Shown: positions 1,044-36,188 of the stretch, piece by piece
Position numbering within the stretch: position 1 is the stretch's first letter
How the letters are laid out: every line of letters begins with the position of its first letter
Assembly (NCBI GenBank): GCA_021735405.1
Contig: JAIPHC010000003.1
Location: forward strand, 1-39,667
Length of the DNA stretch: 39,667 nucleotides
Source: Candidatus Omnitrophota bacterium
GTDB lineage: Bacteria > Omnitrophota > Gorgyraeia > Duberdicusellales > 4484-171
Reading direction: 5' to 3'
Position numbers and translations under genes: made by a program
Notes under the pieces: model-generated
Seen by the model: the letters and a program-made list of their open reading frames with translations, nothing else
Database searches by the model: none
Told to the model about the DNA's origin: nothing

Positions 1044-1072
1044 AAGATTTAATGCGATAAAAGCGTTGACAA

Positions 1073-1092
1073 CCTGCCTGCCGGCAGGCAGG
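1073..1092. repeat. Perfect 20-bp palindrome CCTGCCTGCCGGCAGGCAGG (REP-like)
   Basis: Read directly. A 17/20 copy lies at 24671-24690. Confidence 0.85.
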
Positions 1093-1117
1093 CACTTTTG
1101 TTGCATAAGGAAGGATT

Positions 1118-1705
1118 ATGGGTAAGGTTAGGATAACCAAGCAAGAGCTAAGAAAACAAAAAGATTCCTTGGCAAGGTTTAGGCGCTATCTGCCTACCCT
1201 GCAGCTTAAAAAAAAGCAACTGCAGCAACAGATTGTAAAGGCCCACCAGCAAATCGATAGAGTATCCAAGGAAGAAGAGGATTTTAGAAACGAAGTTATT
1301 AACTGGGTGGATTTGTTTGCTCAGCAAAATCCAATCAGAGAAGTTTTAAGCCTGAAGGCTATAAAAACCCGGCGGGGGAATGTGGCCGGCGTTGATTTAC
1401 CTATATTTGATAGAGTTGATTTCGAACTAAAAAGCTACAGCCTGATGGAGACTCCTCTTTGGCTTGATTCCGGTATCGAAGCTGTTAAAAAGGTAATTAA
1501 CTATAAGGCAGAGTTGATTGTGCTGCATAGGCAACTGGATGCTTTAAAAGAAGAGCTGAGGATTACCAATCAAAGGGTTAATTTATTTGAAAAGGTTAAG
1601 ATTCCCGAATCAGAGGAAAATATTCGGATGATTCAAATTTATTTGGGGGAAAGAAGAACAGCCGCTGTGGTTAGAGGTAAAATCGCCAAAGCCAAAATCG
1701 GATAA
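1118..1705 (+). CDS. atpD: V/A-type ATP synthase subunit D
   Basis: LPTLQLKK and ELRITNQRVNLFEKVKIP motifs; operon position. V-type nomenclature (ntpD). Confidence 0.93.
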   Translation: MGKVRITKQELRKQKDSLARFRRYLPTLQLKKKQLQQQIVKAHQQIDRVSKEEEDFRNEVINWVDLFAQQNPIREVLSLKAIKTRRGNVAGVDLPIFDRVDFELKSYSLMETPLWLDSGIEAVKKVINYKAELIVLHRQLDALKEELRITNQRVNLFEKVKIPESEENIRMIQIYLGERRTAAVVRGKIAKAKIG

Positions 1706-1743
1706 AAGAAGGCTATGGTTTGATAAATAGTTGGCATTAATGT

Positions 1744-1825
1744 TCCGAGAGACGATGGATGAGGGACGAGAGGACGAAAATTTCGTCTATCGTCCTAGCG
1801 AAGTGGTCGTCTGTCGTCTATCGGA
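1744..1825. repeat. Inverted-arm element of GACGA(T/G)G heptamers and TCGTC(T)(A/G) heptamers
   Basis: Left arm gacgatg-gatgagg-gacgaga-ggacgaaa; right arm tttcgtc-tatcgtc...tcgtctg-tcgtcta-tcgga. Related to 3597-3649. Confidence 0.8.
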
Positions 1826-1838
1826 TGAGGGATAATAA

Positions 1839-3605
1839 ATGATCGTAAGGATGCGCAAGCTTACAATTTTAGTATCAAAGACAAGCGTTGATTCAGCTTT
1901 ACATGATCTGCGTGAGCTAGGGGTGTTTCATGTATCTCATTTAAGAAAACCCCACGCTGACTATATAGACACGGTAAGGAAAAGGTTGTCAAGATTAGAT
2001 AAAGTTTTGAATATAGTAGGGGAATCAAAAAAGCAAAAAAAACTTAGCAGAGAAGAGCTGATTTCTGCCTCCAAAGAAATTGTGGGTTTAGCTCAAGAAA
2101 AAAATAAACTCAAAGGCCGTCTGGCAGAATTAAACCAAAAAACCGCCTGGTTTAAGCAGTGGGGAGATGTTTCAAAAAAGGATTTGGAAAAACTGGCGGA
2201 TAAAAATATTTTCATTAAATTATATCGTTGCGGCGAAAAAGAATTCAAAAAGTTAAACCAGGATAAATTAGTTTACATTGTTGGGCGAAAAGGAGCTAAT
2301 TTACGCTTAATCCATATATCGACAAGCAAAGATGAAGAGCTAAAGTTTCAGCGGGTTGAAGTTCCTCAGGAGAGTTTGAGCTCACTTAATAAAGAAATTA
2401 ATTATATTCAACAGAGCAGAAAAGAAATCGAAGAAAAAATAAGTTCATTTTCAGTTTACCGGGATTGTTTTACCGGGTACAAGAAGAAACTGCTTAACAA
2501 GCTTGAGTTTATAAAAGTGAAATTTGGAATGGAAGGCAGCGAAGCTTTAGCCTGGCTCCAGGGGTTTTGCCCTCTTGATTCAGTAAAAAAAATAAAAAAA
2601 ACAGCCCAAAAAAATGGTTGGGCAATAGCAGTTGAGAAACCTGACAACCCAAGAGAAGTCCCCACTTTAATCAGAAATCCAAAGTGGGTCGAAATCATAA
2701 AACCCGTTTTTAATTTTATGGGCACTTTGCCCGGTTATAAGGAGTATGATATAAGTTTTTGGTTTTTATTATTTTTTAGTTTATTTTTTGCTATGTTAGT
2801 GGGAGACGCAGGATACGGGGTTATTTTTCTTGCAGCCACTTATTTGGCCAGAAGGAAATTCAAACAAGCTCCGGCTGCGCCCTTTTTTTTAATCTATACC
2901 TTAAGCTTTGCAACCGTTATTTGGGGCGCTTTATCGGGTAATTGGTTCGGGGTAGAAGCTGTTACTAAATTGCCTTTTTTTGATTTTTTAGTTATTGACC
3001 GAATTAACAGTTTTACAAAAACTAATCAAAATTTTATGATTTATTTTTGTTTTGTAATCGGGGTGGCGCATTTATCGATAGCCCATTTAATAAAAGCCTT
3101 TCGTTATTTGAACTCTTTTAAGGTTTTGGCGGAAATTGGCTGGGTTTGTATTTTGTGGACAGCTTTTTTTGTGGCCAGCCAATTACTTGTGGGCAAACCG
3201 GCTCCGAATTTTACCTCAGGATTAGGCATAGCCGGTATAACCGCTGTTATTTTGTTCTCTAACTTTCAAAAGAATGTTTTAAAGGGAGCCCTTTCGACTT
3301 TAGGGACTTTACCTTTAGACGTAATTAGCTCTTTTACCGATATTATTTCTTACCTGCGCCTTTTTGCTGTAGGTTACGCAACGCTTGCCGTTGCCACCGC
3401 TTTTAATACCATGGCAACAAGTACGGGCCTGGGGGGGCTTTTAGGCGGAATTGCGGCCGCAATAATTCTTTTTCTCGGGCATAGTTTAAATATTTTGTTG
3501 TGTTTAATGTCGGTTGTAGTTCATGGAATCAGATTGAATTTACTTGAATTTTCCGGGCAATTAGGAATGGAGTGGTCCGGTAAAGAATATAGGCCGTTCC
3601 GATAG
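1839..3605 (+). CDS. atpI: V/A-type ATP synthase subunit I (a)
   Basis: Soluble N-terminal half, GDAGYG, SYLRLFAVG with the essential Arg, HGIRLNLLEF; multi-TM C-terminal half. Confidence 0.95.
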   Translation: MIVRMRKLTILVSKTSVDSALHDLRELGVFHVSHLRKPHADYIDTVRKRLSRLDKVLNIVGESKKQKKLSREELISASKEIVGLAQEKNKLKGRLAELNQKTAWFKQWGDVSKKDLEKLADKNIFIKLYRCGEKEFKKLNQDKLVYIVGRKGANLRLIHISTSKDEELKFQRVEVPQESLSSLNKEINYIQQSRKEIEEKISSFSVYRDCFTGYKKKLLNKLEFIKVKFGMEGSEALAWLQGFCPLDSVKKIKKTAQKNGWAIAVEKPDNPREVPTLIRNPKWVEIIKPVFNFMGTLPGYKEYDISFWFLLFFSLFFAMLVGDAGYGVIFLAATYLARRKFKQAPAAPFFLIYTLSFATVIWGALSGNWFGVEAVTKLPFFDFLVIDRINSFTKTNQNFMIYFCFVIGVAHLSIAHLIKAFRYLNSFKVLAEIGWVCILWTAFFVASQLLVGKPAPNFTSGLGIAGITAVILFSNFQKNVLKGALSTLGTLPLDVISSFTDIISYLRLFAVGYATLAVATAFNTMATSTGLGGLLGGIAAAIILFLGHSLNILLCLMSVVVHGIRLNLLEFSGQLGMEWSGKEYRPFR

Positions 3606-3649
3606 GAACGAGGGACGATGGACGAGGGACGAATTTTCGTCTATCGGAA
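3597..3649. repeat. Second GACGAGG-heptamer inverted element; its left end contains the atpI stop codon
   Basis: Terminal stem ttccgatag (3597-3605) / ctatcggaa (3641-3649); interior gaacgagg-gacgatg-gacgagg-gacgaa-ttttcgtc. Confidence 0.8.
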
Positions 3650-3682
3650 GAAAGATAAAACGTAATTTAAGAGGAGGTTGAA

Positions 3683-4129
3683 ATGATACAAGGTTTTGGT
3701 GATATGAGTTTATCTTTGGCGTTTGCCGCAGTAGGCTCGGCTTTAGGCACAGGTGTTGCCGGAATGGCTGCGGTAGGGGCTTGGAAAAAAGCTTTTTCGG
3801 AAAATAAAACAGCACCATTTACCTTACTTGCTTTTGTGGGGGCGCCTTTAACTCAAACTATTTATGCTTGGATATTACGGGATCAAATCATTGGCGCTAA
3901 TTTGCCCGCTACTACTGCCACTTATGTATTTCAGGCTGTACTTGGGCTGGCTGCGGGTATTGCGATGGGAGCTTCTGCCTACATGCAAGGCAAAGCGGCG
4001 GCAAGAGCCTGTGACGCTTTAGCAGAAACCGGTAAAGGCTTTGGCCAATATATAACAGTGCTGGGGATAATTGAAACGGTAGCTTTATTTGTAATGGTGT
4101 TTTGTATGATGGCGCTTCCTTCGGCCTAA
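3683..4129 (+). CDS. atpK: V/A-type ATP synthase subunit K (c), four-TM, probably Na+-binding
   Basis: Duplicated-hairpin proteolipid with LTQTIY, MQG and IIETVALF. SD GGAGG just upstream. Confidence 0.93.
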   Translation: MIQGFGDMSLSLAFAAVGSALGTGVAGMAAVGAWKKAFSENKTAPFTLLAFVGAPLTQTIYAWILRDQIIGANLPATTATYVFQAVLGLAAGIAMGASAYMQGKAAARACDALAETGKGFGQYITVLGIIETVALFVMVFCMMALPSA

Positions 4130-4233
4130 TAGGGCGTGTCCGAGTAGGACGTTTACTAAAGCAGAGGCTTTAAGCCCTTAATTTTCGCTTTTTGAACGAA
4201 AAGGATTACGCAAAAATATAGAAAAGTGTTCTC

Positions 4234-4315
4234 GGTGTCATTCTGAGGGAGAGTCAGCGACCGAAGAATCTCAAGCCATTGCGGAGATCCTTCGGCTTCG
4301 CCTCAGGATGACACC
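4234..4315. repeat. GTCATTCTGAG...GAAGAATCT / AGATCCTTC...CTCAGGATGAC palindromic intergenic repeat
   Basis: Terminal stem ggtgtcattctgagg / cctcaggatgacacc, inner stem ccgaagaatctc / gagatccttcgg. Related copy at 24717-24811. Confidence 0.85.
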
Positions 4316-4350
4316 TAATGTTTTAAAAATGACAACGTCTACTAAAAAGG

Positions 4351-4379
4351 TTGATTTTTTTACCAATTCTTGTTATTAT
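4351..4379 (+). promoter_or_regulatory. Sigma70-type promoter for tRNA-Val (and possibly thrS)
   Basis: TTGATT-17 bp-TATTAT with extended -10 TG. Confidence 0.6.
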
Positions 4380-4420
4380 TGCGGATATGGCACTTCGCTG
4401 AAAATAATTGCATTTTCAAT

Positions 4421-4495
4421 GGGCGGTTAGCTCAGTTGGTTTAGAGCGTCTCGTTTACACCGAGAGGGTCGTGGGTTCGAATCCTACACCGCCCA
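4421..4495 (+). tRNA. tRNA-Val(TAC), CCA not encoded
   Basis: Cloverleaf: acceptor GGGCGGT/ACCGCCC, D-stem GCTC/GAGC, anticodon stem TCTCG/CGAGA with loop TTTACAC, T-arm GTGGG-TTCGAAT-CCTAC. Confidence 0.97.
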
Positions 4496-4619
4496 TGTTT
4501 TTGTGTTTATTCATAAATGTTATTTGCAAAATTTATTTGCGGGCAGTGCAATAGAATATTCGGAACAAATAAGACAGTTTTGGCAAGCAAGCAGCTTCGG
4601 CTGCGCCGAAGATTTGTTG

Positions 4620-4640
4620 CGAATCCTACACCGCCCACCA
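4620..4640 (+). repeat. 18-bp direct repeat of the tRNA-Val 3' end followed by CCA (attR-like)
   Basis: cgaatcctacaccgccca at 4478-4495 and 4620-4637; CCA at 4638-4640. Confidence 0.9.
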
Positions 4641-4711
4641 CTTTTTTGGGAACAAAAAAGTGGTGAGGCTCGCCAATTTGAAAAATTGGCGGCCCATAAT
4701 TCATAAAACAT

Positions 4712-4837
4712 AAATTCGAAATTCTAATATTAAAATTCGAAACAAATCTAAATATCTAAATATTCCAATTTTCAAAACTGTTTTTTGTATTTTTGAATTT
4801 TTTTATTTCGGGTTTCGACATTCGAATTTCGGATTTT
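4712..4837. repeat. AT-rich inverted-arm element of AAATTCG/AAATCT-like units upstream of thrS
   Basis: Left arm aaattcgaaattctaatattaaaattcgaaac...; right arm ...gtttcgacattcgaatttcggatttt. Confidence 0.7.
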
Positions 4838-4843
4838 AATAAT

Positions 4844-6550
4844 ATGGATTTAAAAACTTTACGACATTCATGCTCTCATGTTTTAGCTTCAGCGGTTAAG
4901 AAGCTCTATCCGGAGGCGAAATTAGGCATAGGGCCTGCTATCGAAGAAGGGTTTTACTATGATTTTGATATTCCCGGAGGTTTAAGCGAAGAAGATTTGC
5001 CAAAAATTGAAGAGTTAATGGAAGAAGAGATAAAATCCGGGCTGCCCTTTGTCCAAAAAGACTTAAGCAAAGAAGAAGCTATAGATTTTTTTAAGAAAAA
5101 GGGTGAAATTTATAAGATAGAATTGATCAAAGATTTAGAAAAAGACCAAGTTTCAACTTTTCAACATAATGATTTTATAGATTTATGCAAAGGGCCTCAT
5201 TTAAAAGATACAGGGCCTTTAAAAAATTTTAAATTACTTTCGGTATCAGGGGCTTATTGGCGGGGAAGCCAAGAAAACGCCCAACTAAGCCGGGTCTATG
5301 GAACGGTTTTTACCGACAGGAAAAGCTTAAAGAAATATTTAAACCGGTTAGAAGAGGCAAAAAAAAGAGATCACCGCAAGTTAGGCAAGGAGTTGGGTTT
5401 ATTTGATATATACCCCGAACAAGCCGGTGCAGGATTAGTTTTTTATCTTCCCAGGGGCGCGATTTTAAGAAAAATCATCACCGATTGGGAAATAAACGAA
5501 CACTTGAAAAGAGGGTATCAAATGATAAATACGCCTCATATTATGGATAGAAATCTTTGGGAAAAAAGCGGCCACCTTAGCCATTACCAGGAGTATATGT
5601 ATCCGGTAAAAAAAGCCAAACAAGAGTTTGTCTTAAAGCCTATGAATTGCCCCGGGCATATTTTAGTCTATAAATCAAAGCTCCATAGTTTTAGAGACCT
5701 TCCCCTTAGGTTGTTTGAATTGGGGACGGTTTATCGTTTTGAAAAGAGCGGGGTTTTGCATGGTTTGCTTCGCTTGCGGGGTTTTACCCAAGATGACGCG
5801 CATATTTTTTGCAAAAAAGAAGATCTTTATTCAGAAATAGAAGGAGTGATTGATTTTGTTAAATCGACTATGGATAAATTCGGGTTTAAAGACTATAGCG
5901 CCGAATTAAGCACCCGGCCGGATAAGTTTATCGGAAAATTAAAAGATTGGCAGATGGCCGAAAAGATTTTAGAAGGGGTTTTAGGAGATAAAAAGCTTAA
6001 CTATAAACTTAATCCCGGCGACGGAGCTTTTTACGGCCCCAAGATAGATATTATTTTAAAAGACGCGATAGGAAGAAGCTGGCAATGCGCTACTATCCAG
6101 CTTGATTATAATATTCCTGAGAGGTTCGATTTAACCTACCGCTCCAAAGAAGATAAAGATGAAAGAGTGGTTATGATCCACCGGGTAGTTTTAGGAAGCT
6201 TGGAAAGGTTTATCGCAACACTGGTAGAGCATTTTGCGGGAGCTTTTCCGCTCTGGCTTGCTCCCATTCAAGTCAGCGTTTTAAATATAAATAAAGATGT
6301 GGCCGATTATGCGGATAAAATAAAAGAAAGGTTGTTAGAAGAAGGTTTTAGGGCTGAATCCGACCTAAGAGAAGAGACTTTGCAAAAGAAAATCAGGGAA
6401 AAAGAGGCTGAAAAAATACCTTATATGCTTATAGTCGGCCGGCGGGAAAAAGAGGCCGGGACGGTTTCGCTGCGCCAAAGGGGAATGAAAAAAATGGGAA
6501 CAAAAAAAATAGAAGAATTAATAACTTTTTTAAAAAAGGAGGCTAAATAG
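4844..6550 (+). CDS. thrS: Threonine--tRNA ligase lacking the N-terminal TGS domain
   Basis: LRHSCSHVLA, DLCKGPH, RDHRKLG, KPMNCPGH, GAFYGPKID. Start moved from TTG 4793 (inside the repeat) to ATG 4844. Confidence 0.96.
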   Translation: MDLKTLRHSCSHVLASAVKKLYPEAKLGIGPAIEEGFYYDFDIPGGLSEEDLPKIEELMEEEIKSGLPFVQKDLSKEEAIDFFKKKGEIYKIELIKDLEKDQVSTFQHNDFIDLCKGPHLKDTGPLKNFKLLSVSGAYWRGSQENAQLSRVYGTVFTDRKSLKKYLNRLEEAKKRDHRKLGKELGLFDIYPEQAGAGLVFYLPRGAILRKIITDWEINEHLKRGYQMINTPHIMDRNLWEKSGHLSHYQEYMYPVKKAKQEFVLKPMNCPGHILVYKSKLHSFRDLPLRLFELGTVYRFEKSGVLHGLLRLRGFTQDDAHIFCKKEDLYSEIEGVIDFVKSTMDKFGFKDYSAELSTRPDKFIGKLKDWQMAEKILEGVLGDKKLNYKLNPGDGAFYGPKIDIILKDAIGRSWQCATIQLDYNIPERFDLTYRSKEDKDERVVMIHRVVLGSLERFIATLVEHFAGAFPLWLAPIQVSVLNINKDVADYADKIKERLLEEGFRAESDLREETLQKKIREKEAEKIPYMLIVGRREKEAGTVSLRQRGMKKMGTKKIEELITFLKKEAK

Positions 6551-7057
6551 GTGAAGAAAAGAGTAAGGGTAAATTTGAGAGTTGTTGCAGAAAGATTAAG
6601 ATTAATCAGCCCCGACGGAGAACAATTGGGAGTAGTGAGCCGTAAGGAGGCTTTAGATAAAGCAAGGGAGCATGGCCTTGATTTAGTCGAGATTGCTCCT
6701 TCTGCAAAACCGCCGGTTTGCCGGATAATGGATTTTACTAAGTATAAATACGAACAAAGCAAAAGAGAAAAAGAACTAAAAAAACATCAGAAGCAATCCC
6801 AGCTAAAAGAAGTGAGAATTACTCCGCGAACCGAAAAACATGATTATCAAGTTAAACTAAAAAGAATAGAAGGATTCCTTAAAAAGCGTCATAAAGTAAG
6901 GATAAGAATGTGGTATAAGGGCAGAGAAATTACTCATAAAGAAATCGGAAGAAGAATTGTAGATAATATTATAAAAGACACAGAATCTATTGCCCAAATA
7001 GATAAAGAGCCTGTAATGAGAGGAAAAACTATGATATTTACTTTGAGCCCGAAATAG
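6551..7057 (+). CDS. infC: Translation initiation factor IF-3
   Basis: LDLVEIAPSAKPPVCRIMDFTKYKYE, KEVRI, GREITH. GTG start 8 nt after AAGGAGG. Confidence 0.96.
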   Translation: MKKRVRVNLRVVAERLRLISPDGEQLGVVSRKEALDKAREHGLDLVEIAPSAKPPVCRIMDFTKYKYEQSKREKELKKHQKQSQLKEVRITPRTEKHDYQVKLKRIEGFLKKRHKVRIRMWYKGREITHKEIGRRIVDNIIKDTESIAQIDKEPVMRGKTMIFTLSPK

Positions 7058-7148
7058 CTATAATAGAACCACAGATAACCCAGAAAGCAGGTAATAGAAA
7101 GATTTACAGAAGACACAAAGAAAGAATAATAGATGAGGAGGAAGGGGT

Positions 7149-7349
7149 ATGCCGAAATTGAAAACAAAAAAAGCATTAGCGAAAAGAATCAAAATTACGA
7201 AAAAGAAAAAAGCTTTACGGTCAAAAGCCGGCAGAAGGCATTTGTTGAGCGGAAAGGGGCGGAAGAGAAAAAGAAATTTACGGAAAAAAGATAAAATGCC
7301 AAAAGAATTAAGTAAGCTGGTAAAGAGGGCTTTACCTTATTCTGTCTAA
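7149..7349 (+). CDS. rpmI: 50S ribosomal protein L35
   Basis: MPKLKTKKALAKRIKIT...RRHLL; position between infC and rplT. Confidence 0.95.
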   Translation: MPKLKTKKALAKRIKITKKKKALRSKAGRRHLLSGKGRKRKRNLRKKDKMPKELSKLVKRALPYSV

Positions 7350-7363
7350 AAAATAATGAGATA

Positions 7364-7423
7364 CACACAGATAAGAACTACGAAATCTGTGTAAATCTGT
7401 ATTTATCTGTGTGAATCTGTGTC
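7364..7423. repeat. 10-bp-period (A/T)ATCTGT(G)T tandem array with an upstream inverted CACACAGATA arm
   Basis: aatctgtgta-aatctgtatt-tatctgtgtg-aatctgtgtc (7384-7423); cacacagata (7364-7373) is the reverse complement of 7404-7413. Confidence 0.8.
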
Positions 7424-7439
7424 ATAAAGGAGGTTTATT

Positions 7440-7784
7440 ATGAGAGCAAGAAGTCCTGTAGCTTCTCGAAAAAGAAAGAAAAAAGTATTAAAGCAAGCCA
7501 AAGGGTATTGGGGCCGGCGTTCTAAGAATTACCGCAGAGCCATTGAAACCCTAAGGCGGGCTTATGTTTATGCCTACAATCACCGGCGGCTTAAAAAAAG
7601 AGAGTTCCGTTCTTTATGGATTACCCGTCTCAATGCAGCCGCCAGAGAAAGAGGGACATCTTACCGGGAATTAATCAATAATTTGAAAAAGAACAATATA
7701 ATCCTTTCCCGCAATGTCTTAGCGTTGATTGCTTCGGAAAATCCAGAAGTGTTTGATAAAATTGTTGAAACAGTAAAAAATTAA
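7440..7784 (+). CDS. rplT: 50S ribosomal protein L20
   Basis: KVLKQAKGYWG, KKREFRSLWITRLNAAAR; SD AAGGAGG. Confidence 0.97.
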   Translation: MRARSPVASRKRKKKVLKQAKGYWGRRSKNYRRAIETLRRAYVYAYNHRRLKKREFRSLWITRLNAAARERGTSYRELINNLKKNNIILSRNVLALIASENPEVFDKIVETVKN

Positions 7785-7792
7785 AAAAAAGC

Positions 7793-8841: not shown

Positions 8842-8842
8842 T

Positions 8843-8953
8843 ATGAAGCCATTTTTAGGTATTATTTTAGAGATTTGTTGTTGTTTGGCTATTATTTTAG
8901 CGGGGTATTTACTTGCGCTGGGGTTAAACTTCTTTTTTCCTTTTAGAATTTAA
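8843..8953 (+). CDS. Small hydrophobic membrane peptide, 36 aa (MKPFLGIILEICCCLAIILAGYLLALGLNFFFPFRI), not in the ORF track
   Basis: Translated by hand. ATG 1 nt after the trkA stop and TAA 2 nt before the trkH ATG, so it fills the gap exactly; one long hydrophobic segment. Confidence 0.65.
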   Translation: MKPFLGIILEICCCLAIILAGYLLALGLNFFFPFRI

Positions 8954-8955
8954 TT

Positions 8956-10440: not shown

Positions 10441-10441
10441 G

Positions 10442-10498
10442 GACACAGATGAACACAGATAGCATACCAAAAACCAGTTTTTACAGATGCACACAGAT
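10442..10498. repeat. ACACAGAT repeat units at the trkH / downstream-gene junction; they supply the ATG at 10449
   Basis: gacacagat-gaacacagat ... tacagat-gcacacagat; reverse complement of the units at 7384-7423. Confidence 0.7.
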
Positions 10499-11006
10499 TT
10501 TTAAAGGTAAAGGTCTGTTATCATTTTTTATTTTGACGCTAAGCTTTTTATTTTCTTTAACTGTTTACGCCGAAGCCCAAACTATAACTTTAAAATCTTT
10601 AATAAATAACCCGGGAAAATACGACGGGAAGATGGTTTCTTTTGAGGCGGAAGCGATTGGGGACCCGCTTGGCGGCAGAAAAGGAATATGGTTTAATGTC
10701 CAGTCAGGAAAATATAATATGGGAATTTTTGTAAAAAACAAGGATCTTATCAATCAAATCAGCCATTGGGGCAGTTATAAAGAAAGAGGAGATTTGATTA
10801 AGAGTGAAGGTATTTTTTATAAAAATTGCTCTGTTCACGGCGGCAGGGATTTGCATTTGGTTAGCCTTGAAATTGTAGAAAAAGGCGGAATAAGGGATCT
10901 TAAAGCAGCAGAGGGAAAAAAAAGGTTTGCTTTATTTAGTTTTGTAATTTTCTTGACATTAGGATGTATTTATCTTATAAAAATAAGATTATGGCAGCAG
11001 AAATAA
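10449..11006 (+). CDS. Hypothetical membrane-anchored protein with a probable OB-fold-like extracytoplasmic domain
   Basis: Signal/TM segment ending VYAEA, then YDGKMVSFEAEAIGD...GDLIKSEGIF...CSVHGG, then a C-terminal TM helix. The fold call is pattern-based. Confidence 0.6.
   Translation: MNTDSIPKTSFYRCTQIFKGKGLLSFFILTLSFLFSLTVYAEAQTITLKSLINNPGKYDGKMVSFEAEAIGDPLGGRKGIWFNVQSGKYNMGIFVKNKDLINQISHWGSYKERGDLIKSEGIFYKNCSVHGGRDLHLVSLEIVEKGGIRDLKAAEGKKRFALFSFVIFLTLGCIYLIKIRLWQQK
10953..10981 (+). promoter_or_regulatory. Candidate sigma70 promoter for pheS inside the upstream CDS
   Basis: TTGACA-17 bp-TATAAA, ending 9 nt before ATG 10991. Confidence 0.55.
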
Positions 11007-12037: not shown

Positions 12038-12041
12038 AAAT

Positions 12042-14045: not shown

Positions 14046-14065
14046 TTTTTATAAATGTTCTTTAC

Positions 14066-14094
14066 TTGAAAAGAAAAAATAAGCCTGTTATAAT
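14066..14094 (+). promoter_or_regulatory. Sigma70 promoter for the 6S-like RNA
   Basis: TTGAAA-17 bp-TATAAT with extended -10 TG. Confidence 0.75.
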
Positions 14095-14101
14095 TATAAT
14101 T

Positions 14102-14250
14102 ACCCTGCCTGTTGCGTTGGAGGTGTAAGCGCTACAGCCAACATCAGTCGTAAGGGAGCCAAATTTCTTAAACAAAAGTTTAGGATGCGGTGCCCACTTG
14201 TGTGAGAAGAGGACTGATAGCGTCGGCCTCGAACGGACTTATGGCGGGGT
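14102..14250 (+). ncRNA. ssrS: Probable 6S RNA
   Basis: Rod-like fold: accctgcc/ggcggggt, cgttggagg/cctcgaacg, central bulge, atcagtc/gactgat, gggagcc/ggtgccc. GC-rich island with its own promoter just downstream of pheT, a common 6S location. Confidence 0.8.
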
Positions 14251-14266
14251 TTAAATTTATAAAAAA

Positions 14267-15238: not shown

Positions 15239-15343
15239 CTCCTCGTCATTTTATTATTTTTCCAAAAGGTAAGTATGGCAAGAACTTCTAAACCGGGTGT
15301 TATGCAACAAAACAGGTTCAAACGGAAATGTTGCATAAGCTGA

Positions 15344-15426: not shown

Positions 15427-15446
15427 TATTATTATATAAAGTATAA

Positions 15447-15580
15447 AGGGGACGTTTCCCTCGTTTATAACTTCTTGTTAGCCAATGGTTTATAAACTGG
15501 AATTTTCCGTTTATTTCCGGAAAACGTCGCTTTATAACTCCTTTATCTGCAGTAACTTATAACAGAGGGAAACGTCCCCT
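15447..15580. mobile_element. 134-bp MITE/REPIN-like element with a 16-bp perfect terminal inverted repeat
   Basis: aggggacgtttccctc (15447-15462) / gagggaaacgtcccct (15565-15580), extending imperfectly to about 24 bp; no ORF inside. Confidence 0.6.
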
Positions 15581-15584
15581 GAGG

Positions 15585-19117: not shown

Positions 19118-19234
19118 AGATATTTTTTGCTTACCTGAATTTTATTTTGCTTAGATTTTAATAAACGGCAAAATATTCCACAGGATAAAGCTTATCATAA
19201 AGAAAAAAGGAAATCAATGCGTTAATCTATTAGA

Positions 19235-19263
19235 TTGACAAGCCAGATAAACTGTTTTATCAT
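19235..19263 (+). promoter_or_regulatory. Sigma70 promoter for the pilM operon
   Basis: TTGACA-17 bp-TATCAT. A back-to-back minus-strand candidate TTGATT-17-TAAGCT lies at 19217-19189. Confidence 0.65.
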
Positions 19264-19321
19264 ATTTGTATACCCAAATCTATCCCGTAAAAAAGGTTTA
19301 ACGCCAAAAAAGTAGCTAAAA

Positions 19322-20341: not shown

Positions 20342-20345
20342 AAAA

Positions 20346-23290: not shown

Positions 23291-23308
23291 AAGAAAAAAT
23301 AATTATTC

Positions 23309-24609: not shown

Positions 24610-24645
24610 ATTAGTGCGATATTATTATAGCTGTGGAAAAAATTT

Positions 24646-24813
24646 AATGTCATTGCGAGCGCAATGAGCACCTGCCTGCTGGCAGATAGGAAGCGACGAA
24701 GTAATCTCTCTATAGCGTCATCCTGAGCCCCCTTCGACTTCGCTCAGGGCAGGCTCCGGGCGAAGGATCTCATTCATCATAGAGATTCTTCGGTTTCGCC
24801 TCAGAATGACATT
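24646..24813. repeat. Composite nested palindromic repeat between convergent genes
   Basis: Outer aatgtcatt/aatgacatt; contains gtcattgcgag..gaagtaatct, cctgcctgctggcagatagg, gtcatcctgag..gaaggatct / agattcttc..ctcagaatgac and cccttcgacttcgctcagggcagg. Confidence 0.85.
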
Positions 24814-24836
24814 GAGGTTATTTCGGGCTTTGCCTT

Positions 24837-27221: not shown

Positions 27222-27229
27222 TGCTATCT

Positions 27230-27258
27230 ATTCTATAATAAGAAGCTTGTTTAGCCAA
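27230..27258 (-). promoter_or_regulatory. Candidate promoter for the GH94 gene (near-leaderless)
   Basis: Minus strand TTGGCT-17 bp-TAGAAT, ending 8 nt before the ATG. Confidence 0.45.
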
Positions 27259-27367
27259 TTATTTTTTCCCCAATGTTGCCGAGTGGTTAATTTAGAATAG
27301 GGAGAATTTAATTTCATTTTGGAAGCCAACCTGATATAATTGTTTCTAATAAGGAGAAAGGCCGGGG

Positions 27368-29092: not shown

Positions 29093-29119
29093 TAATTTTT
29101 ATTCAGAAACAGTTATTTT

Positions 29120-30382
29120 ATGAACTTACCATATTTATTATTTTCTGATAAAAAAGGTAAAATTTATTCACATCCTTATCTGAAAATGCTCGGAGGCTTA
29201 TTGGAAGAATTCCGTCTTCCTAAAAAAGGGGAGTTAATTCCAGCTCCTTCGGGTACGACCTTTTTTTATCTTCCTGGCAGTTATCCTTGCGGTTATAATC
29301 CGGAGAGCCAAAGATTTGAAAAAATAGAGAAATTCGAAGGCAAAAGAGTATATGCGGTTTCGTCTTTTTTGCCGCCTTCTTATCTGCGTTTATATAATCC
29401 GGCAGCATATTGGCAAAAAAAGAAAAGAAGGCTTCCGCTTTGGGCTTATACCGGTTGCGGGTTTTATGGCGGAAAAGTTATGGTAGCGGCTAGAAAAGTT
29501 GATAAAAGAATCAGGCAGGCTCCCGGGTTTTATGATAATGGGTTGGTTGAAAAACGAGCTAATTTTTTTATTAAAAAATTTCGGAAAAACCGCCTCTATA
29601 AACATCTTTTTAATTGTGCTTTAAATTATAATTGTCTGGCTGCAAAAAATCTTTTTATGCAGCGCTGGGAAGCTCCTTTGCCGGTAGCCAGATTTTGTAA
29701 TGCCCGCTGTCTTGGCTGTCTCAGCCTTCAGGATTCAAATTGCATTTCTTCCCATCAGAGGATTAATTTTAAACCTAAAGTTTCTGAAGTTGTTGAAGTA
29801 ATGATAAATCATCTAGAAAAAGCAAAAGAGCCCATTGTTAGTTTTGGCCAAGGCTGTGAAGGGGAGCCCTTGCTGGAAGCAAGTTTAATAGCCGAAAGCG
29901 TAAAAGAAGTAAAGAGCAGAGTTAAACGGGGGACGATTAATGTAAATACTAACGGCAGTTTTCCGGAAAAAATAAAAACGCTTTCCCGGGCCGGGGTTGA
30001 TTCTTTCAGGATAAGTTTAAACAGCCCCGAAGAGAGATTTTATAATATTTATTTCAAGCCAAAGAATTATAAATTTTTAGATGTTGTCGAATCAATTCGA
30101 ATTGCTAAAAAATACGGAAAATTTGTTGCTCTAAATTTATTTATTTTTCCCGGTTTTAGCGATTCAAGGCAGCAAATAGATAAGTTATTAAGTTTTTTGC
30201 GAAAAAATGATATAGACATGATTCAGTGGCGCAATTTAAATATTGATCCAAACTATTACATTCGTAAAATATCAGACAGCAGCTTAAAACCAGCGGGGGT
30301 GCCGGCTCTTCTGGGAGCGGTTAGAAGAAACTTTCCCGGAATAAAGACAGGTTATTTTAATCTACCCAAAGAAAGTTTTTAA
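29120..30382 (+). CDS. Radical SAM protein of unknown function
   Basis: CNARCLGC (CxxxCxxC), FGQGCEGEPLL, NTNG; extra CALNYNC. Confidence 0.9.
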   Translation: MNLPYLLFSDKKGKIYSHPYLKMLGGLLEEFRLPKKGELIPAPSGTTFFYLPGSYPCGYNPESQRFEKIEKFEGKRVYAVSSFLPPSYLRLYNPAAYWQKKKRRLPLWAYTGCGFYGGKVMVAARKVDKRIRQAPGFYDNGLVEKRANFFIKKFRKNRLYKHLFNCALNYNCLAAKNLFMQRWEAPLPVARFCNARCLGCLSLQDSNCISSHQRINFKPKVSEVVEVMINHLEKAKEPIVSFGQGCEGEPLLEASLIAESVKEVKSRVKRGTINVNTNGSFPEKIKTLSRAGVDSFRISLNSPEERFYNIYFKPKNYKFLDVVESIRIAKKYGKFVALNLFIFPGFSDSRQQIDKLLSFLRKNDIDMIQWRNLNIDPNYYIRKISDSSLKPAGVPALLGAVRRNFPGIKTGYFNLPKESF

Positions 30383-30488
30383 AACTCAATTTTATATGGT
30401 ACAATCTATTTAAGAGATTACAGCGATTAGAAAAATGATTGTAATGATTCAATCATCGTAAAATAATTGCCGAAATCATGTTAAAAAG

Positions 30489-30707
30489 ATGATAAAACAA
30501 GTTGAATTAAATATCCCCACAACTTTTAAAAAAGAGCCTTTTTTTTATAATATAATTAAAAATTTTAAAGTTATCCCCAGTATTTTAGAAGCATCTTTTT
30601 CAACCGCGACCGGTTGGGCTATCGTTAGTTTCCAAGGCAGCAGCAAAGAATTAACGAGGTTGTTTGATTATTTAGAAAAAAAAGGCATAGAAGTCAAGTT
30701 TCGTTAA
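30489..30707 (+). CDS. Stand-alone NIL-domain protein
   Basis: 72 aa, EPFFYNIIKNFKVIPSILEA...GWAIVSFQG...YLEKKGIEV matches the NIL pattern. Confidence 0.75.
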   Translation: MIKQVELNIPTTFKKEPFFYNIIKNFKVIPSILEASFSTATGWAIVSFQGSSKELTRLFDYLEKKGIEVKFR

Positions 30708-30726
30708 TCCTTCCCCAGGTTAAAAT

Positions 30727-31788
30727 ATGGAAAAAGTAATAGTTGCAATGAGTGGCGGGGTTGATTCTTCCGTTGCGGCTTTATTATTAAAGGAGGCTGG
30801 TTTTTTTGTTGCCGGAGTTACTATGTCTTTTGCTGATAAACACAGAGATAGCGAATCCAGGAATTTTGAAGAAAGAAATATAGAAGACGCTAAAAAAATA
30901 GCCGAACAATTAAAAATAAAACATTATGTTTGGGATTTTTCAAAAGAGCTGGAAAATCAAGTGGCAGCAAAATTTTTAAACGGGTATTTGGCCGGCAGAA
31001 CCCCTAACCCTTGCGTGGAGTGCAATAAATTTATAAAGTTCGGGTCTTTATTAAAAAAAACAAAAGAATTAGGTTTTGATTTTTTAGCAACCGGGCATTA
31101 TGCTAAAATTCAGAAAAATAAAAATTTATTTTTGTTAAAAAAACCTAAAGATAAAACTAAAGATCAGACATATTTTATCTATTCGATAAAAAAAGAAAAA
31201 TTGGCTGATATTTTATTTCCTTTATCTGACTATCAAAAAAAGCAAGTTCAAAATATCGCAAAAGAAAGACAATTATTTGTTTTTGAAAAAGATCAAAGCC
31301 AAGATCTGTGTTTTGTTTTAGAGAAAAAATATGTTGATTTTGTCAAGGCACAAAGGCAAAAAGAAAAGGCAGGTTTTATCGTAAACACAAAGGGAAAAAT
31401 TTTAGGAAAGCATAAAGGAGTATTCTTTTATACTGTGGGGCAAAGAAAAGGCTTAGGAATAAGCGCTAAACAGCCATTATATGTTTTGTCGATTGACGCA
31501 AAAAATAATAAGATTATTGTAGGTAAAAAAAACAAGTTGAAAAACAAGGGGCTTATTGCAGGCAGCCTGAATCTTTTGGCAGAGTCTTTTCCTAAAAAAG
31601 CAAAAGCAAAAATTCGGTATGCTCATAAGGAGGCTGATTGCAGTTTAGAAAATGATGGCAAAAGATTAAAGGTTGTTTTTTCGCGCAAACAGGAAGCAAT
31701 TACTCCGGGGCAATCCGTAGTGTTTTACGATAAGGATATTGTTTTAGGAGGGGGGATAATTGAGGAGGTTTTAGATGAAACTAGCTGA
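30727..31788 (+). CDS. mnmA: tRNA 2-thiouridine(34) synthase MnmA
   Basis: AMSGGVDSS, TPNPCVECNKFIKF, ATGHYA, KDQTYF, SQDLCF, YTVGQRKGLG, ITPGQSVVFY. Confidence 0.96.
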   Translation: MEKVIVAMSGGVDSSVAALLLKEAGFFVAGVTMSFADKHRDSESRNFEERNIEDAKKIAEQLKIKHYVWDFSKELENQVAAKFLNGYLAGRTPNPCVECNKFIKFGSLLKKTKELGFDFLATGHYAKIQKNKNLFLLKKPKDKTKDQTYFIYSIKKEKLADILFPLSDYQKKQVQNIAKERQLFVFEKDQSQDLCFVLEKKYVDFVKAQRQKEKAGFIVNTKGKILGKHKGVFFYTVGQRKGLGISAKQPLYVLSIDAKNNKIIVGKKNKLKNKGLIAGSLNLLAESFPKKAKAKIRYAHKEADCSLENDGKRLKVVFSRKQEAITPGQSVVFYDKDIVLGGGIIEEVLDETS

Positions 31789-32680
31789 TAAAATTAAAAA
31801 GCTAAAGAAAGAAAAAAATGCTGTAATTTTAGTCCATAATTACCAGAATCCGGAAGTTCAGGAAATAGCGGATTTTACCGGCGATTCTTTAGGCTTAAGC
31901 AAAAAAGCAGCGGCTACGGATGCGGATATTATAATTTTTTGCGGAGTTTTTTTCATGGCTGAAACTGCTAAGATTCTCTCGCCGCAAAAAAAGGTAATTC
32001 TCCCTGATGAACAAGCCGGATGCCCCATGGCTGACATGATAACAGCAAAACAGCTGATAGAGTTAAAGAGAAAACATCCAAAAGCCAAGGTATTAACTTA
32101 TGTCAACAGCCCGGCTGAAGTAAAAGCCGAATCTGATTTTTGCTGTACTTCGGCAAATTCAATCAGTGTAGTTGAAAAAGCTTTTAGCGAAGATGATCAA
32201 ATTATATTTGTTCCCGATAAATTCCTGGGCCAGTATACCGCGGGTCAAACTAAGCGGGATTTTATATTCTGGCAAGGGTATTGCCCAGCTCATGCAAAAA
32301 TTAGCCCCGAGGATTTAAGAAAACAAAAAGAAATTCATCCTGATGCAAAAATCATTGTTCATCCTGAATGCCGGCCAGAAACTATAGCTTTAGCCGACAG
32401 AGCTCTTTCAACTTCAGGGATGATTAAATTTGCTAAAGAAACTACAGCAAAAAAGATAATTGTGGGAACAGAGCCGGGGATGATTTATCCTCTCAGAAAA
32501 TATGCACCGGATAAATGTTTTTATCCGGCTTCCAGCCAGGCTAATTGTCCGGATATGAAAAAGATTAATTTGGAAAAAGTCCTTAACGGGCTCGAAAATT
32601 TAAGTTATGAAATAAAAATAAAAGATGAAATAATTCATCAGGCAAAAAGAAGTATTCAGAGAATGTTGGATTTAAGTTAA
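31775..32680 (+). CDS. nadA: Quinolinate synthase
   Basis: VHNYQ, GDSLGL, FCGVFFMAE, GCPMA, YVNS, CCTSAN, HPEC, CPDMK. Confidence 0.96.
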   Translation: MKLADKIKKLKKEKNAVILVHNYQNPEVQEIADFTGDSLGLSKKAAATDADIIIFCGVFFMAETAKILSPQKKVILPDEQAGCPMADMITAKQLIELKRKHPKAKVLTYVNSPAEVKAESDFCCTSANSISVVEKAFSEDDQIIFVPDKFLGQYTAGQTKRDFIFWQGYCPAHAKISPEDLRKQKEIHPDAKIIVHPECRPETIALADRALSTSGMIKFAKETTAKKIIVGTEPGMIYPLRKYAPDKCFYPASSQANCPDMKKINLEKVLNGLENLSYEIKIKDEIIHQAKRSIQRMLDLS

Positions 32681-32691
32681 AAGCGCCTCAA

Positions 32692-32720
32692 TTGACACTT
32701 TTTTAGAGCTGTGATATAAA
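32692..32720 (+). promoter_or_regulatory. Sigma70 promoter
   Basis: TTGACA-17 bp-TATAAA with extended -10 TG. Confidence 0.7.
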
Positions 32721-32737
32721 TTTTTTAAAGGTTGATT

Positions 32738-33730
32738 ATGAAAACAAAAGCAATAGCGTTATTATCCGGAGGCCTGGACAGTATCTTGGCCGCTCAACAG
32801 GTTAAGGAGGAAGGAGTTGAGGTGACAGCCTTGCATTTTAATAACCCTTTTTCTGTTTCTCCGGAGGGGCAAAAAAAAGAACTTCTTGGTAAAATATCAA
32901 ATCAATTAGGGCTGAAATTAAATAATGAAGCTTTAGGAAAGGATTATTTATCAATCATAAAAAAGCCTAAATTCGGTTATGGGAAGAATTTAAATCCTTG
33001 TATCGACTGCCGGATATATATGCTGAGGAAAACAAAACAATATATGAAAAGCTCAGGCGCGTCTTTTATAGTTACAGGAGAAGTCTTGGGGCAAAGGCCG
33101 ATGTCGCAGCATCACAAAGCTTTGTTTGATATCGAAAAAGAATCCGGCTTAAAGGAGATGATTTTACGGCCTCTTTCGGCAAAGTTATTTCCTGAAACAA
33201 TTCCTGAGAAAAAAGGATGGGTAGAAAGAAATAATTTATTAAGTATTTCGGGACGGAGCAGAAAAATTCAGCTTCAACTAGCAGATAAATATAAAATAAA
33301 AGATTATTTTTGGGCAGGAGGAGGGTGTTTATTGACTGATTCCAATTTTTGCCGCCGGCTTGAAGATATTATAAAAATAGATCAATTAAATTTAGCCAAC
33401 ATTGAACTTCTTAAAGTAGGAAGGCATTTTAGATTCGGTCCTTCTTTTAAGTTTATCGTAGGAAGGGATGAAAAAGAAAACCAAAAACTTGATTATTTAA
33501 AAAAGGAAAATGATTATTTGTTTAAACCGATAGATCAAGCTGGCCCTACTGGATTAGGAAGAGGAAAAATTAATGAATCAATTAAAGAATTATGCACTAA
33601 AATTATTACCAGATATAGCTCAGGAGATCAAGATTTTAAGATACGCATAACAAATGATAAAGAAAAAATTGATGAAGTTTATAAGGCTGAAATGCCCGAA
33701 AATAATAAATACAGATCATTTATAATTTAA
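32738..33730 (+). CDS. PP-loop tRNA sulfurtransferase-like protein (ThiI/MnmA-like, no THUMP domain)
   Basis: LLSGGLDS, NPCIDCR, TGEVLGQRPMSQ, AGGGCLLTD, GRHFR. Confidence 0.8.
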   Translation: MKTKAIALLSGGLDSILAAQQVKEEGVEVTALHFNNPFSVSPEGQKKELLGKISNQLGLKLNNEALGKDYLSIIKKPKFGYGKNLNPCIDCRIYMLRKTKQYMKSSGASFIVTGEVLGQRPMSQHHKALFDIEKESGLKEMILRPLSAKLFPETIPEKKGWVERNNLLSISGRSRKIQLQLADKYKIKDYFWAGGGCLLTDSNFCRRLEDIIKIDQLNLANIELLKVGRHFRFGPSFKFIVGRDEKENQKLDYLKKENDYLFKPIDQAGPTGLGRGKINESIKELCTKIITRYSSGDQDFKIRITNDKEKIDEVYKAEMPENNKYRSFII

Positions 33731-33735
33731 AATAG

Positions 33736-33842
33736 AGGTATTCGCTAAATAATTGTATTTAAGTATAAGGCACTTCGCCAAGGAATTTGGCTCAGTGCCA
33801 TTGAAAATATAGGTATTCGCTAAATAAAATCATTTTCAATGG
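33736..33842 (+). repeat. Structured leader of metY: 17-bp direct repeat plus two hairpins
   Basis: aggtattcgctaaataa at 33736-33752 and 33811-33827; ggcact/agtgcc stem 33769-33799; ccattgaaaat/attttcaatgg 33798-33842. Confidence 0.75.
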
Positions 33843-33850
33843 AGGTAAAA

Positions 33851-35143
33851 ATGAGTAAAATTGATAAAAAATTAAAACCGGAAAGCATTCTCCTTCATGG
33901 GGGTCAAGAGCCTGATCCGGTAACTGGCGCACGAGCTGTCCCGGTTTATCAGACTACTTCTTATAAATTTAAAGATTCAGACCATGCAGCGAAATTATTT
34001 GCTTTAAAAGAGCCTGGCAATATTTACACCCGGCTAATGAATCCAACAACGGATGTTTTTGAAAAAAGAGTGGCTGCTTTAGACGGCGGAGCGGGGGCCT
34101 TGGCTACGGCAAGCGGGATGTCGGCAATTACCTTATCCATTCTTAATATTGCTCAAGCTGGAGATGAGATAGTTTCTGCTGATAACCTTTATGGAGGTAC
34201 TTACACTCTTTTTCGCTACAGGCTTAAGCAATTGGGGATAAAGGTGAAGTTTGTCAATTCAGAGAATCCAGAAGCTTTTAGAAAAGCTATCACAAATAAA
34301 ACAAAAGCTGTGTATGTAGAATCAATTGGGAATCCTAAACTGGATGTGCCTGATATAGAAAAACTTTCCGGGATAGCCCACAAAAAAGGCATACCTTTGA
34401 TTATAGATAATACTGTTGCGCCTTATATTTTGTCTCCAATTAAGTTTGGCGCAGATATTGTGGTTTATTCGGCGACTAAATTTTTAGGAGGCCACGGCAC
34501 CTCAATTGGAGGGGTAATCGTTGATTCGGGAAAGTTTAACTGGGATAAGGGAAAATTTCCTTTAATCTCAGAACCTGACCCCAGTTATCAGGGAATTAAT
34601 TTTATTAAGGCGCTGAAACCCCGGGGTAATATCGCTTATATTGTTAAGGCGAGGCTATCGCTGCTTCGTGACCTAGGGCCTGCTTTATCGCCTTTTAATA
34701 GTTTTCTTTTTTTGCAAGGGTTAGAGACTTTACATCTTAGAATGCCAAGGCATTGTCAAAATGCTTTAGAAGTTGCTGAGTTTTTAAAGAATCATTCTAA
34801 GGTTGCCTGGGTGAGGTATCCTGGTTTGAATTCAGATTCACAAAATGAAAAGATAAACAAATATTTACCTAAGGGTAGAGGAGCTATCGTTGGTTTCGGG
34901 GTAAAGAAGGGAAAAGCCGCTGGTAAAAAATTTATAGATTCTTTAAAATTGATTTCACATCTTGCTAACATTGGAGACGCCAAAACCTTAGCGATTCATC
35001 CGGCTACCACTACTCATCAACAGCTAACTAAAGAAGAACAAAAAACAACCGGAGTAAGCCAAGATTATATTCGGATTTCGGTTGGCATCGAAAACATAGA
35101 TGATATCATTTCTGATATCGATCAAGCTTTAAATCATGTTTAG
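33851..35143 (+). CDS. metY: O-acetylhomoserine aminocarboxypropyltransferase (sulfhydrylase)
   Basis: [59 protein letters not shown] favours ATG 33851. Confidence 0.93.
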
Positions 35144-35194
35144 AAAGAGCCAAGATACAAATTACAATAATTAAATTTTAATAACCAAATAAAA

Positions 35195-36121
35195 ATGCAT
35201 AAAATTTATCAAAGTATTACAGAAACTATAAGAAAAACCCCGCTGGTTAAGATAAATAGATTAACTAAAGATTTAGATGTAGAAGTCTTAGCAAAAATAG
35301 AGTCCTTTAATCCTTTATCCAGTATTAAAGATAGAATTGGAACGGCAATGATTGAAAAAGCTGAAGCCGAAGGTAAGCTCAATAAAAATTCAGTAGTTAT
35401 TGAACCAACAAGTGGAAATACCGGCATTGCTTTGGCTTTTGTTTGTGCCGCAAAAGGTTATAGGTTAATTTTAACTATACCGGATACAATGAGTATTGAA
35501 CGCAGGCAGCTGTTGCGGCATTTTGGCGCAGAGATAATATTAACAGAAGGAAGCAAAGGAATGGAAGGCGCAGTTGCTGAAGCTGAAAGGTTAGCCGGAA
35601 ATACACCAGATAGTTTTATGCCTCAGCAGTTTCAAAATTCTGCTAATTGGCAAACTCATTATAAGACTACCGGCCCGGAAATTTGGCAGGATACAAGGGG
35701 CAAAGTAGATATTTTTATTGCCGGGGTTGGAACAGGTGGTACAATTACCGGTGTGGGTAAATTTTTAAAAGAACAAAAAGATTCAATTAAGATTATTGCT
35801 TTAGAACCTAGCGCTTCAGCGGTTTTATCCGGAGGCAAATCCGGCCCGCATAAGATTCAAGGAATTGGAGCAGGGTTTATTCCAGAAATTTTAGATCAAG
35901 GTTTAATCGACGAGATAATGAAAGTCTCTGACCAAAATAGTGGCGAATTTGCTAAAAAATTGGCAAAAAAAGAAGGGATATTTGCGGGTATTTCCAGCGG
36001 AGCGGCTATTTGGGCTGCGGTTGAGGTGGCAAAAAGGCAAGAATCAAAAGGTAAAACTATTGTCACAGTTTTACCGGACACCGGAGAAAGATACTTATCA
36101 GTTTGGTCCATATTTAAGTAA
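35195..36121 (+). CDS. cysK: Cysteine synthase A
   Basis: [48 protein letters not shown]. Confidence 0.95.
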
Positions 36122-36126
36122 AAATA

Positions 36127-36178
36127 TTATCACACCGCGTAGGTGTGATAAAGAGAATTCCCACCTACGCGGTGGGAA
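36127..36178. repeat. REP-like doublet: two hairpins that are reverse complements of each other
   Basis: ttatcacacc-gcgta-ggtgtgataa and ttcccacc-tacgc-ggtgggaa. Confidence 0.8.
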
Positions 36179-36188
36179 GAGGTTGATT

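Follow-up and report, generated by a model that had tools for sequence, protein, structure and literature searches.

Junction hairpins in a Candidatus Omnitrophota contig: a probable mixed population of small DNA insertions, some of them gene-less cassette shells

The DNA analyzed here is contig JAIPHC010000003.1 of assembly GCA_021735405.1, from a Candidatus Omnitrophota bacterium, taken over its whole length of 39,667 nt (the window); its subject is the set of hairpin elements that lie between the genes. The window is contig C40 of an 861-kb genome in 51 contigs (77% complete), labeled G000; other G numbers denote related genomes, and C numbers denote contigs. The genes lie nearly all on the + strand. 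They include those for V-type ATPase subunits B, D, I, and K, tRNA-Val, thrS, infC, rpmI, and rplT, together with trkA and trkH, pheS and pheT, a two-component system, pilM to pilQ, mnmA, nadA, methionine and cysteine genes, and birA.

Hairpins at operon junctions and their turnover

A first-pass annotation of the window had listed 12 inverted-repeat elements and stated that most gaps longer than about 50 bp hold one, while many other genes abut or overlap. We compared the fold of each element with those of 200 dinucleotide shuffles. Ten of the 11 elements in one test gave z scores from -2.96 to -8.49, with 0 or 1 of the 200 shuffles folding equally well, and 24646-24813, tested separately, gave z = -3.47. 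Eleven of the 12 elements thus fold far better than shuffled sequence; the exception, 10442-10498 (z = -1.08; 23 of 200 shuffles equally good), is not a hairpin. By crude gene calls, 11 of the 18 gaps of at least 50 nt contain a listed element. The other seven do not: 7058-7148 (direct units only), 8842-8955, 14046-14266 (the 6S RNA candidate described below), 19118-19321, 27222-27367, 32681-32731, and 35144-35194. At 20 further junctions, the genes stand at most 27 nt apart or overlap, as had been stated. A search with Rfam 15 at the gathering score matched only two tRNAs in the window and none of the hairpin elements.

The claim that the elements form several families held. A census by BLAST of the window elements against the 861-kb genome, supplemented by motif scans, found between 2 and 20 loci for each family. 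The window contains at least eight dispersed families, and a ninth, family B (AAGATACAAG units), has 15 loci in G000, none of them in the window. Outside gene calls, where 9% of bases lie, we found 76 of the 88 family loci. The arms of tandem units were evident on reading the sequence, and some elements do contribute a stop or start codon or end next to a ribosome-binding site (RBS): the atpI stop codon (3603-3605) lies in an outer stem, an ATG at 10449 falls inside repeat units, and position 33842 adjoins a GGAGG. The further point that a purine-rich arm comes first, in the same polarity relative to transcription, proved uninformative, since an inverted repeat reads alike on both strands; the pattern is strand-symmetric and therefore shows no polarity. 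A global purine polarity of the arms was also considered and rejected: among 145 hairpins in co-directional gaps genome-wide, the 5' arm was purine-rich in 76 and pyrimidine-rich in 65.

The V-ATPase region was compared in 26 relatives, and other junctions in five congeners. Ten of 24 relatives have an atpI-atpK gap of 1-30 nt, an RBS and little more. Hairpins of 114-228 nt with other sequences occupy this gap in G006, G001, G003, G004, and three genomes at a greater distance; those of G006, G001, and G004 are B-type. At atpD-atpI, 19 of 25 relatives have 0-32 nt between the genes, and a contig of metagenome run X1 has 22 nt where the window has 142. G006, whose subunit I is 95% identical, carries its B-type hairpin at atpI-atpK, a different hairpin at atpD-atpI, and an atpB-atpD hairpin lacking the 20-nt palindrome seen in the window. 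Three of the five congeners have an rpmI-rplT gap of only 15-30 nt, and the window element is therefore a clean 64-nt insertion, missing in G006, G005, and G004 and in 96-97%-like contigs of four metagenome runs. Other junctions are empty in the window and occupied elsewhere: thrS-infC holds a 190-nt B-type hairpin in G006, and oahs-cysK an E-type element in G004. In DNA runs of four lake metagenomes, contigs span an empty rpmI-rplT junction, a 22-nt atpD-atpI junction, and an atpB-atpD junction without the palindrome. Insertion and loss have thus taken place at the DNA level, and the clean indels relative to congeners (64, 20, and 26 nt) have sharp ends.

The two shorter indels lie within or beside older hairpins. 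At atpB-atpD, the older junction hairpin (1052-1106, +; z = -4.82), present without the insert in G006, contains a nested, perfect 20-nt palindrome (family I, 1073-1092; seven genome loci), which is a clean 20-nt indel relative to G006 and is missing from a roughly 95%-like contig of metagenome run X4. The cysK-metX pair (36127-36178, +; z = -6.54) combines a resident hairpin shared with G006 (36127-36151) with a 26-nt insertion (36151-36176), an indel relative to G006 that consists of a 21-nt multicopy palindrome (family H, eight genome loci) with 5-nt direct repeat flanks. Nesting in loops recurs: the palindrome of 1073-1092 also sits in a family A loop on C25, 24646-24813 is nested, an extra module in a G006 hairpin is missing in G001, and G040 contains a three-level nest.

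Gene-less shells and gene-bearing cassettes

Family A (five loci in G000 by BLAST, plus three more by fold scan) occupies two V-ATPase junctions. At atpD-atpI, 1742-1826 (+; z = -6.82) has arms of GGACGAR heptamers and an AGCGAAG-type bulge in the 3' arm; at atpI-atpK, the shorter 3606-3649 (+; z = -3.18) has an outer pairing that extends back over the atpI stop (3597-3605). In G005, a genome of the same genus, contig C85 carries a PF05635/TIGR02436 gene enclosed by arms that align with 1742-1826, including the 3'-arm bulge, and with four other family A copies of G000. Two more filled family A copies are present in G002. In G004, a four-helix-bundle gene lies in B-type arms, whose match to a G000 shell reaches 88-93% identity (E = 7.6e-11). 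Both window hairpins, 1742-1826 and 3606-3649, share homologous arms with the filled G005 and G002 cassettes, and sequence alignment therefore identifies them as gene-less forms of four-helix-bundle cassettes.

The first-pass annotation had suggested that the elements are empty or collapsed gene cassettes, and this proved correct for the two family A hairpins; at least six of the 12 elements are of other kinds, namely, a REPIN-like element, the 20-nt and 21-nt palindromes, the GTCATYCTGAGG family, a leader module, and one single-copy hairpin. The three states that it had expected at orthologous junctions (no element, arms only, and arms around a small open reading frame [ORF]) all exist, the filled state only at other junctions. 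The link that it had drawn between such arms and TIGR02436 and TIGR04256 genes, is real, and the flanks of these genes are inverted arms of tandem units.

TIGR02436 genes occur in 34 of 41 related genomes, with 1 to 10 in each and four in G000. TIGR04256 genes (equivalent to Pfam PDDEXK_3) occur in 12 of the 41, and none was found in G000. Around 29 four-helix-bundle genes, the longest exact complementary run between the flanks had a median of 11 nt, compared with 7 nt around 243 control genes of 80-200 aa; runs of at least 10 nt were present at 20 of the 29 loci versus 11 of the 243 controls (p = 1e-8). The arm units around four-helix-bundle genes vary from copy to copy. CAC[AG]G[AG] units, of the same type as in family D (ACACAGAT), bracket five of the eight PDDEXK_3/GxxExxY loci inspected. 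The family D hairpin in the window is the 64-nt rpmI-rplT insertion (7358-7421, +; z = -3.17), and three direct ACACAGAT units without a complementary arm lie at 10442-10498 (+), overlapping the start of a 185-aa ORF. Judging by unit type, 7358-7421 and 10442-10498 may belong to the same arm-gene-arm kind of cassette. When elements of families C, D, E, G, and H were compared by BLAST with 64 cassette loci, no arm match appeared apart from family A and chance neighbors. The 185-aa ORF itself (10449-11006, +), between trkH and pheS, has a signal-peptide-like start, its first codons lie in the ACACAGAT units, and it matched no Pfam or NCBIfam model.

The arms also accompany the protein over long distances. 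Relatives of the G005 protein at 59-80% identity come from records titled from at least 10 phyla, including Omnitrophota, Planctomycetota, Nitrospirota, Desulfobacterota and other Deltaproteobacteria, Margulisiibacteriota, Saganbacteria, Bacteroidota, and Betaproteobacteria. Among 80 such relatives, 45 have at least two GACGA upstream and at least two TCGTC downstream; the same pattern was found in 0 of 29 diverse family members. The mean numbers were 2.21 GACGA upstream and 2.10 TCGTC downstream, compared with 0.06 and 0.39 for the swapped motifs. Read as codons, the last units can give the first residues of the protein. The downstream arm lies past the stop codon in most copies read, and therefore coding does not explain its conservation. 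These counts indicate that the protein clade keeps its GGACGAR heptamer arms across many phyla.

In some relatives the cassettes pile up in arrays, with several genes within 5-16 kb. Four-helix-bundle and GxxExxY genes are clustered at G013:C34:31185-47433, G007:C2:136443-148253, G007:C8:48964-54221, and G013:C17:51088-54194. In G000, two filled four-helix-bundle cassettes (C9:1090-1410 and 3830-4144) lie between sugar-nucleotide genes. A gene of the same family is described between wbpP and ugd in a Riemerella capsule locus (PMC13688083).

We determined orientation relative to transcription by strand-specific BLAST of asymmetric features. Families A, C, and G always lie in the sense of transcription (5/5, 6/6, and 13/13 orientable copies), and families E and F mostly do (7 to 2 and 10 to 3). 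Filled cassettes were co-directional with their neighbors at all 26 loci with co-directional flanks. A replication-strand bias could add to this orientation bias.

Elements of other kinds

Family F has 20 loci, 17 of them intergenic, comprising 13 paired copies of 93-164 nt plus single ends. Its copy in the window is a 134-nt REPIN-like palindrome (15447-15580; z = -8.49) between convergent genes, after tRNA-Leu. On C39, a copy 749 nt long has a 187-aa ORF between inverted family F ends, and this ORF matches the Y1 transposase model PF01797 (E = 5.1e-14; 52.9 bits against a cut-off of 23). On these sequence grounds, the RAYT-like Y1 transposase of C39 is the likely mobilizer of family F and would act on single-stranded hairpin DNA. 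The first-pass statement that no mobilizing enzyme lies in the window is true of the window itself; elsewhere the genome has a probable one for this family.

The family E element after atpK and before tRNA-Val (4234-4315, +; z = -6.20) has GTCATYCTGAGG ends and a nested inner stem. The family has about 15 loci in G000, and its motif matches 24 times in G000, 30 times in G005, and 0-4 times in 11 other relatives. No filled form of this GTCATYCTGAGG family was found in 13 genomes, where motif pairs were at most 232 nt apart or not inverted. At G000:C10:5933-6040, five tandem 24-nt units, each with GCTCAGGATGAC, form one family E arm amplified head to tail. Between convergent genes, the composite at 24646-24813 joins nested family E-type modules to a CCTGCCTGC-type palindrome, and its parts match eight other loci. 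Upstream of thrS, the AT-rich hairpin of family C (4712-4837, +; seven loci) has AAATTCGAA units and a weak fold (z = -2.96). The hairpin at 30415-30479 (+; z = -3.53), with GATT-type units, is also weak and is single-copy in the genome. Family G is a leader module: the window copy (33731-33842, +; z = -4.35) has a GC stem followed by a stem with a promoter-like TTGAAA-18-TAAAAT (33801-33830), and all 14 loci are intergenic, always directly before a gene and ending at its RBS.

RNase III (TIGR02191, PF14622) was found neither in G000 nor in 20 relatives from the order of the window and its neighbors, 12 of these 21 genomes being at least 90% complete. The enzyme is present in 31 of 32 genomes of the phylum's other classes and in 8 of 28 of the same class. 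A clade-level loss of RNase III seems likely from this distribution. We also considered this loss as a cause of cassette abundance and rejected it: across 61 genomes of the phylum, four-helix-bundle genes occur both with and without RNase III.

Two further features of the window concern its RNA genes. About 130 nt past tRNA-Val (4420-4496), a copy of the tRNA 3' end (4593-4640) lies beside 35 nt that include a small GC hairpin and recur on C13 (twice) and C29; the tRNA copy could mark an old integration site. The best-folding gap absent from the list of 12, 14046-14266, was tried as a repeat and rejected, as it contains a 6S RNA candidate (14099-14254, +) that matches RF00013 over the full model length (42.7 bits against a gathering score of 46.4; E = 1.4e-7). 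The candidate is preceded, at 14066-14094, by a strong promoter-like site (TTGAAA-17-TATAAT with TG).

Origin of the junction hairpins

The sequence families, their restriction to intergenic DNA, the gain and loss between relatives, the homology of shells and cassettes, and the nesting in loops are best explained if what occupies the junctions is a mixture of small, selfish DNA insertions, some of them gene-less shells of mobile cassettes, and we consider this probable. The insertions would survive where they are harmless, between genes and in the loops of older hairpins. One kind would consist of two inverted arrays of 7-9-nt units, its full copies enclosing one promoterless small gene for either a four-helix-bundle protein (TIGR02436/PF05635) or a PDDEXK_3/GxxExxY nuclease-fold protein. 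Full cassettes lie in the sense direction of the host operon and would therefore ride on its transcription, and the purine-rich upstream arm may supply the RBS of the cassette gene. A second kind would be the REPIN-like palindrome at 15447-15580, with its RAYT-like Y1 transposase in another contig. A third kind, without a known enzyme, would comprise 1073-1092, 36151-36176, 4234-4315, 24646-24813, and the leader module 33731-33842. The shells may be moved in trans by the product of filled copies, with the unit arrays as putative recognition sites, and the transcribed stems would persist as RNA hairpins in a clade seemingly without RNase III. Shells are most numerous where filled family A copies are present (25 in G005 and 10 in G002, versus 7, 6, 2, 2, and 0 where none were seen).

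Several known systems resemble parts of this arrangement. In the intervening sequence (IVS) of the Coxiella burnetii 23S rRNA gene, an inverted-repeat stem encloses an S23p (PF05635) gene in the sense of the host transcript, with tandem GACAGAT heptamers 5' of the start codon; copies decay and lose the gene, and the IVS is excised by RNase III (PMC4990558). Like this ORF-bearing IVS, the filled relatives of families A and B have a tandem-unit stem around a PF05635 gene, of which the window copies retain the arms only. Unlike the IVS, the window elements lie between protein or tRNA genes, their host transcript is an mRNA operon, and most copies are gene-less; the G000 assembly contains no 23S rRNA gene. 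RNase III was not found in the clade, so Coxiella-type excision cannot be assumed here. REPIN/RAYT systems are described as multicopy intergenic palindromic doublets with one Y1 tyrosine transposase flanked by the same ends (PMC3116915, PMC3337134). Family F is alike in its numerous intergenic doublets, palindromic and of one sequence, and a putative Y1 transposase ORF lies between ends of the same kind. In the cassette model, too, a single-copy gene would act in trans to move the shells. Families A, B, and D differ in that their cassettes carry a four-helix-bundle or PDDEXK_3 protein rather than an HUH transposase, and in having arms built as tandem arrays of short units.

Miniature inverted-repeat transposable elements (MITEs) are gene-less derivatives of insertion sequences, short and non-coding, with inverted ends, many copies, and variable presence. 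The window elements resemble them in these traits, inverted ends included, and one of the three clean indels shows a target duplication (5 nt, at 36151-36176); unlike those of MITEs, the parent cassettes have no known transposase. In Geobacter metallireducens, sets of four tandem octanucleotides or five heptanucleotides occur as opposite-strand pairs and are predicted to be global regulator sites (PMC2700814). Its multicopy sequences are similar in placing paired opposite-strand heptamer or octamer arrays at dozens of intergenic positions. They differ in being read as regulator sites or regulatory RNAs, and the available part of that report links them to neither a cassette gene nor gain and loss (PMC2700814).

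Four other explanations were weighed. The hairpins might be host RNA signals that punctuate polycistronic transcripts (processing, stabilizing, or decoupling translation) and are kept for that use. Their sense-strand position inside operons, the RBS or stop codon at the edge of some, the uniform orientation of families A, C, and G, and the promoter-like site and RBS of family G would all fit. This account is nevertheless unlikely, as congeners whose neighboring proteins are 95-98% identical have either nothing or an unrelated hairpin at the same junction, the sequence families are common to unrelated operons, and searches of the 21 clade genomes with two models did not find RNase III, which usually acts on such stems. 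If the tandem heptamer or octamer arrays were instead sites for a global transcription regulator, the similar paired arrays predicted as such in G. metallireducens would provide a precedent (PMC2700814). Units vary from one family to the next, orthologous promoters do not share the sites, many of the sites separate co-transcribed genes, and a small gene accompanies the arrays across phyla, which leaves the regulator explanation with very little probability.

An origin by slippage and local duplication of short units, without mobility, would account for the variation in unit number between copies, and the heptamer number is likewise described as varying among Coxiella strains (PMC4990558). This already disfavored idea is highly improbable given that numerous unlinked loci, also of different genomes, have copies with 70-93% similarity across both arms, and that the indels are sharp-ended. 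Least credible of all are intrinsic terminators or attenuators. Only 1073-1092, 1 of the 12 elements, fits the terminator pattern on the sense strand; 36127-36178 fits on the antisense strand only, the others lack a T run, and most elements lie inside operons for one complex (V-ATPase, ribosomal proteins).

A number of findings weigh against the insertion and cassette account itself. In the 26 relatives, none of the window's junctions was seen to have a filled cassette, and none was found at all for families C, E, G, H, and I. In G000, an assembly only 77% complete, no filled cassette with family A arms was found, and the three full four-helix-bundle genes have other arms. The shell counts derive from seven genomes that are related and incomplete. 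Family D is linked to PDDEXK_3 by unit type, and BLAST alignment gave no match. Families B (9 to 6) and H (3 to 4) are not uniformly oriented. The gene calls are our own crude ORF picks. The best NCBIfam model for the C39 ORF, the REP-associated tyrosine transposase NF047646, scores 62.7 bits, below its cut-off of 80. Cassette numbers are independent of RNase III, and its absence therefore does not explain their abundance. To our knowledge, neither cassette protein is a known transposase.

A broader proposal, which we offer tentatively and consider possible but doubtful, is that the arm-gene-arm cassettes are distinct, very widespread minimal mobile elements. Their arrays would be recognized by their own small protein, acting on the folded-back arms and moving cassettes and shells in trans into junctions and loops in the operon sense; the 23S rRNA IVS would be a special case. 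The candidate for the recognizing protein is presumably the pentamer-forming four-helix-bundle protein related to Avd, or the PDDEXK_3 nuclease. We found no publication treating non-rRNA four-helix-bundle or GxxExxY cassettes and their shells as a class, and none on elements with these end motifs.

On this account, the stems in these essential operons are come-and-go insertions rather than conserved regulators, and annotation should treat them with that caution. A separate question is posed by the apparent loss of RNase III from a clade with so many long stems in its operons. The cassette account links three puzzles: the four-helix-bundle and GxxExxY families, the ORF-bearing rRNA IVS, and the short-repeat intergenic hairpins of uncultured bacteria. 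If the small proteins do recognize the arms, these abundant families would gain a testable function.

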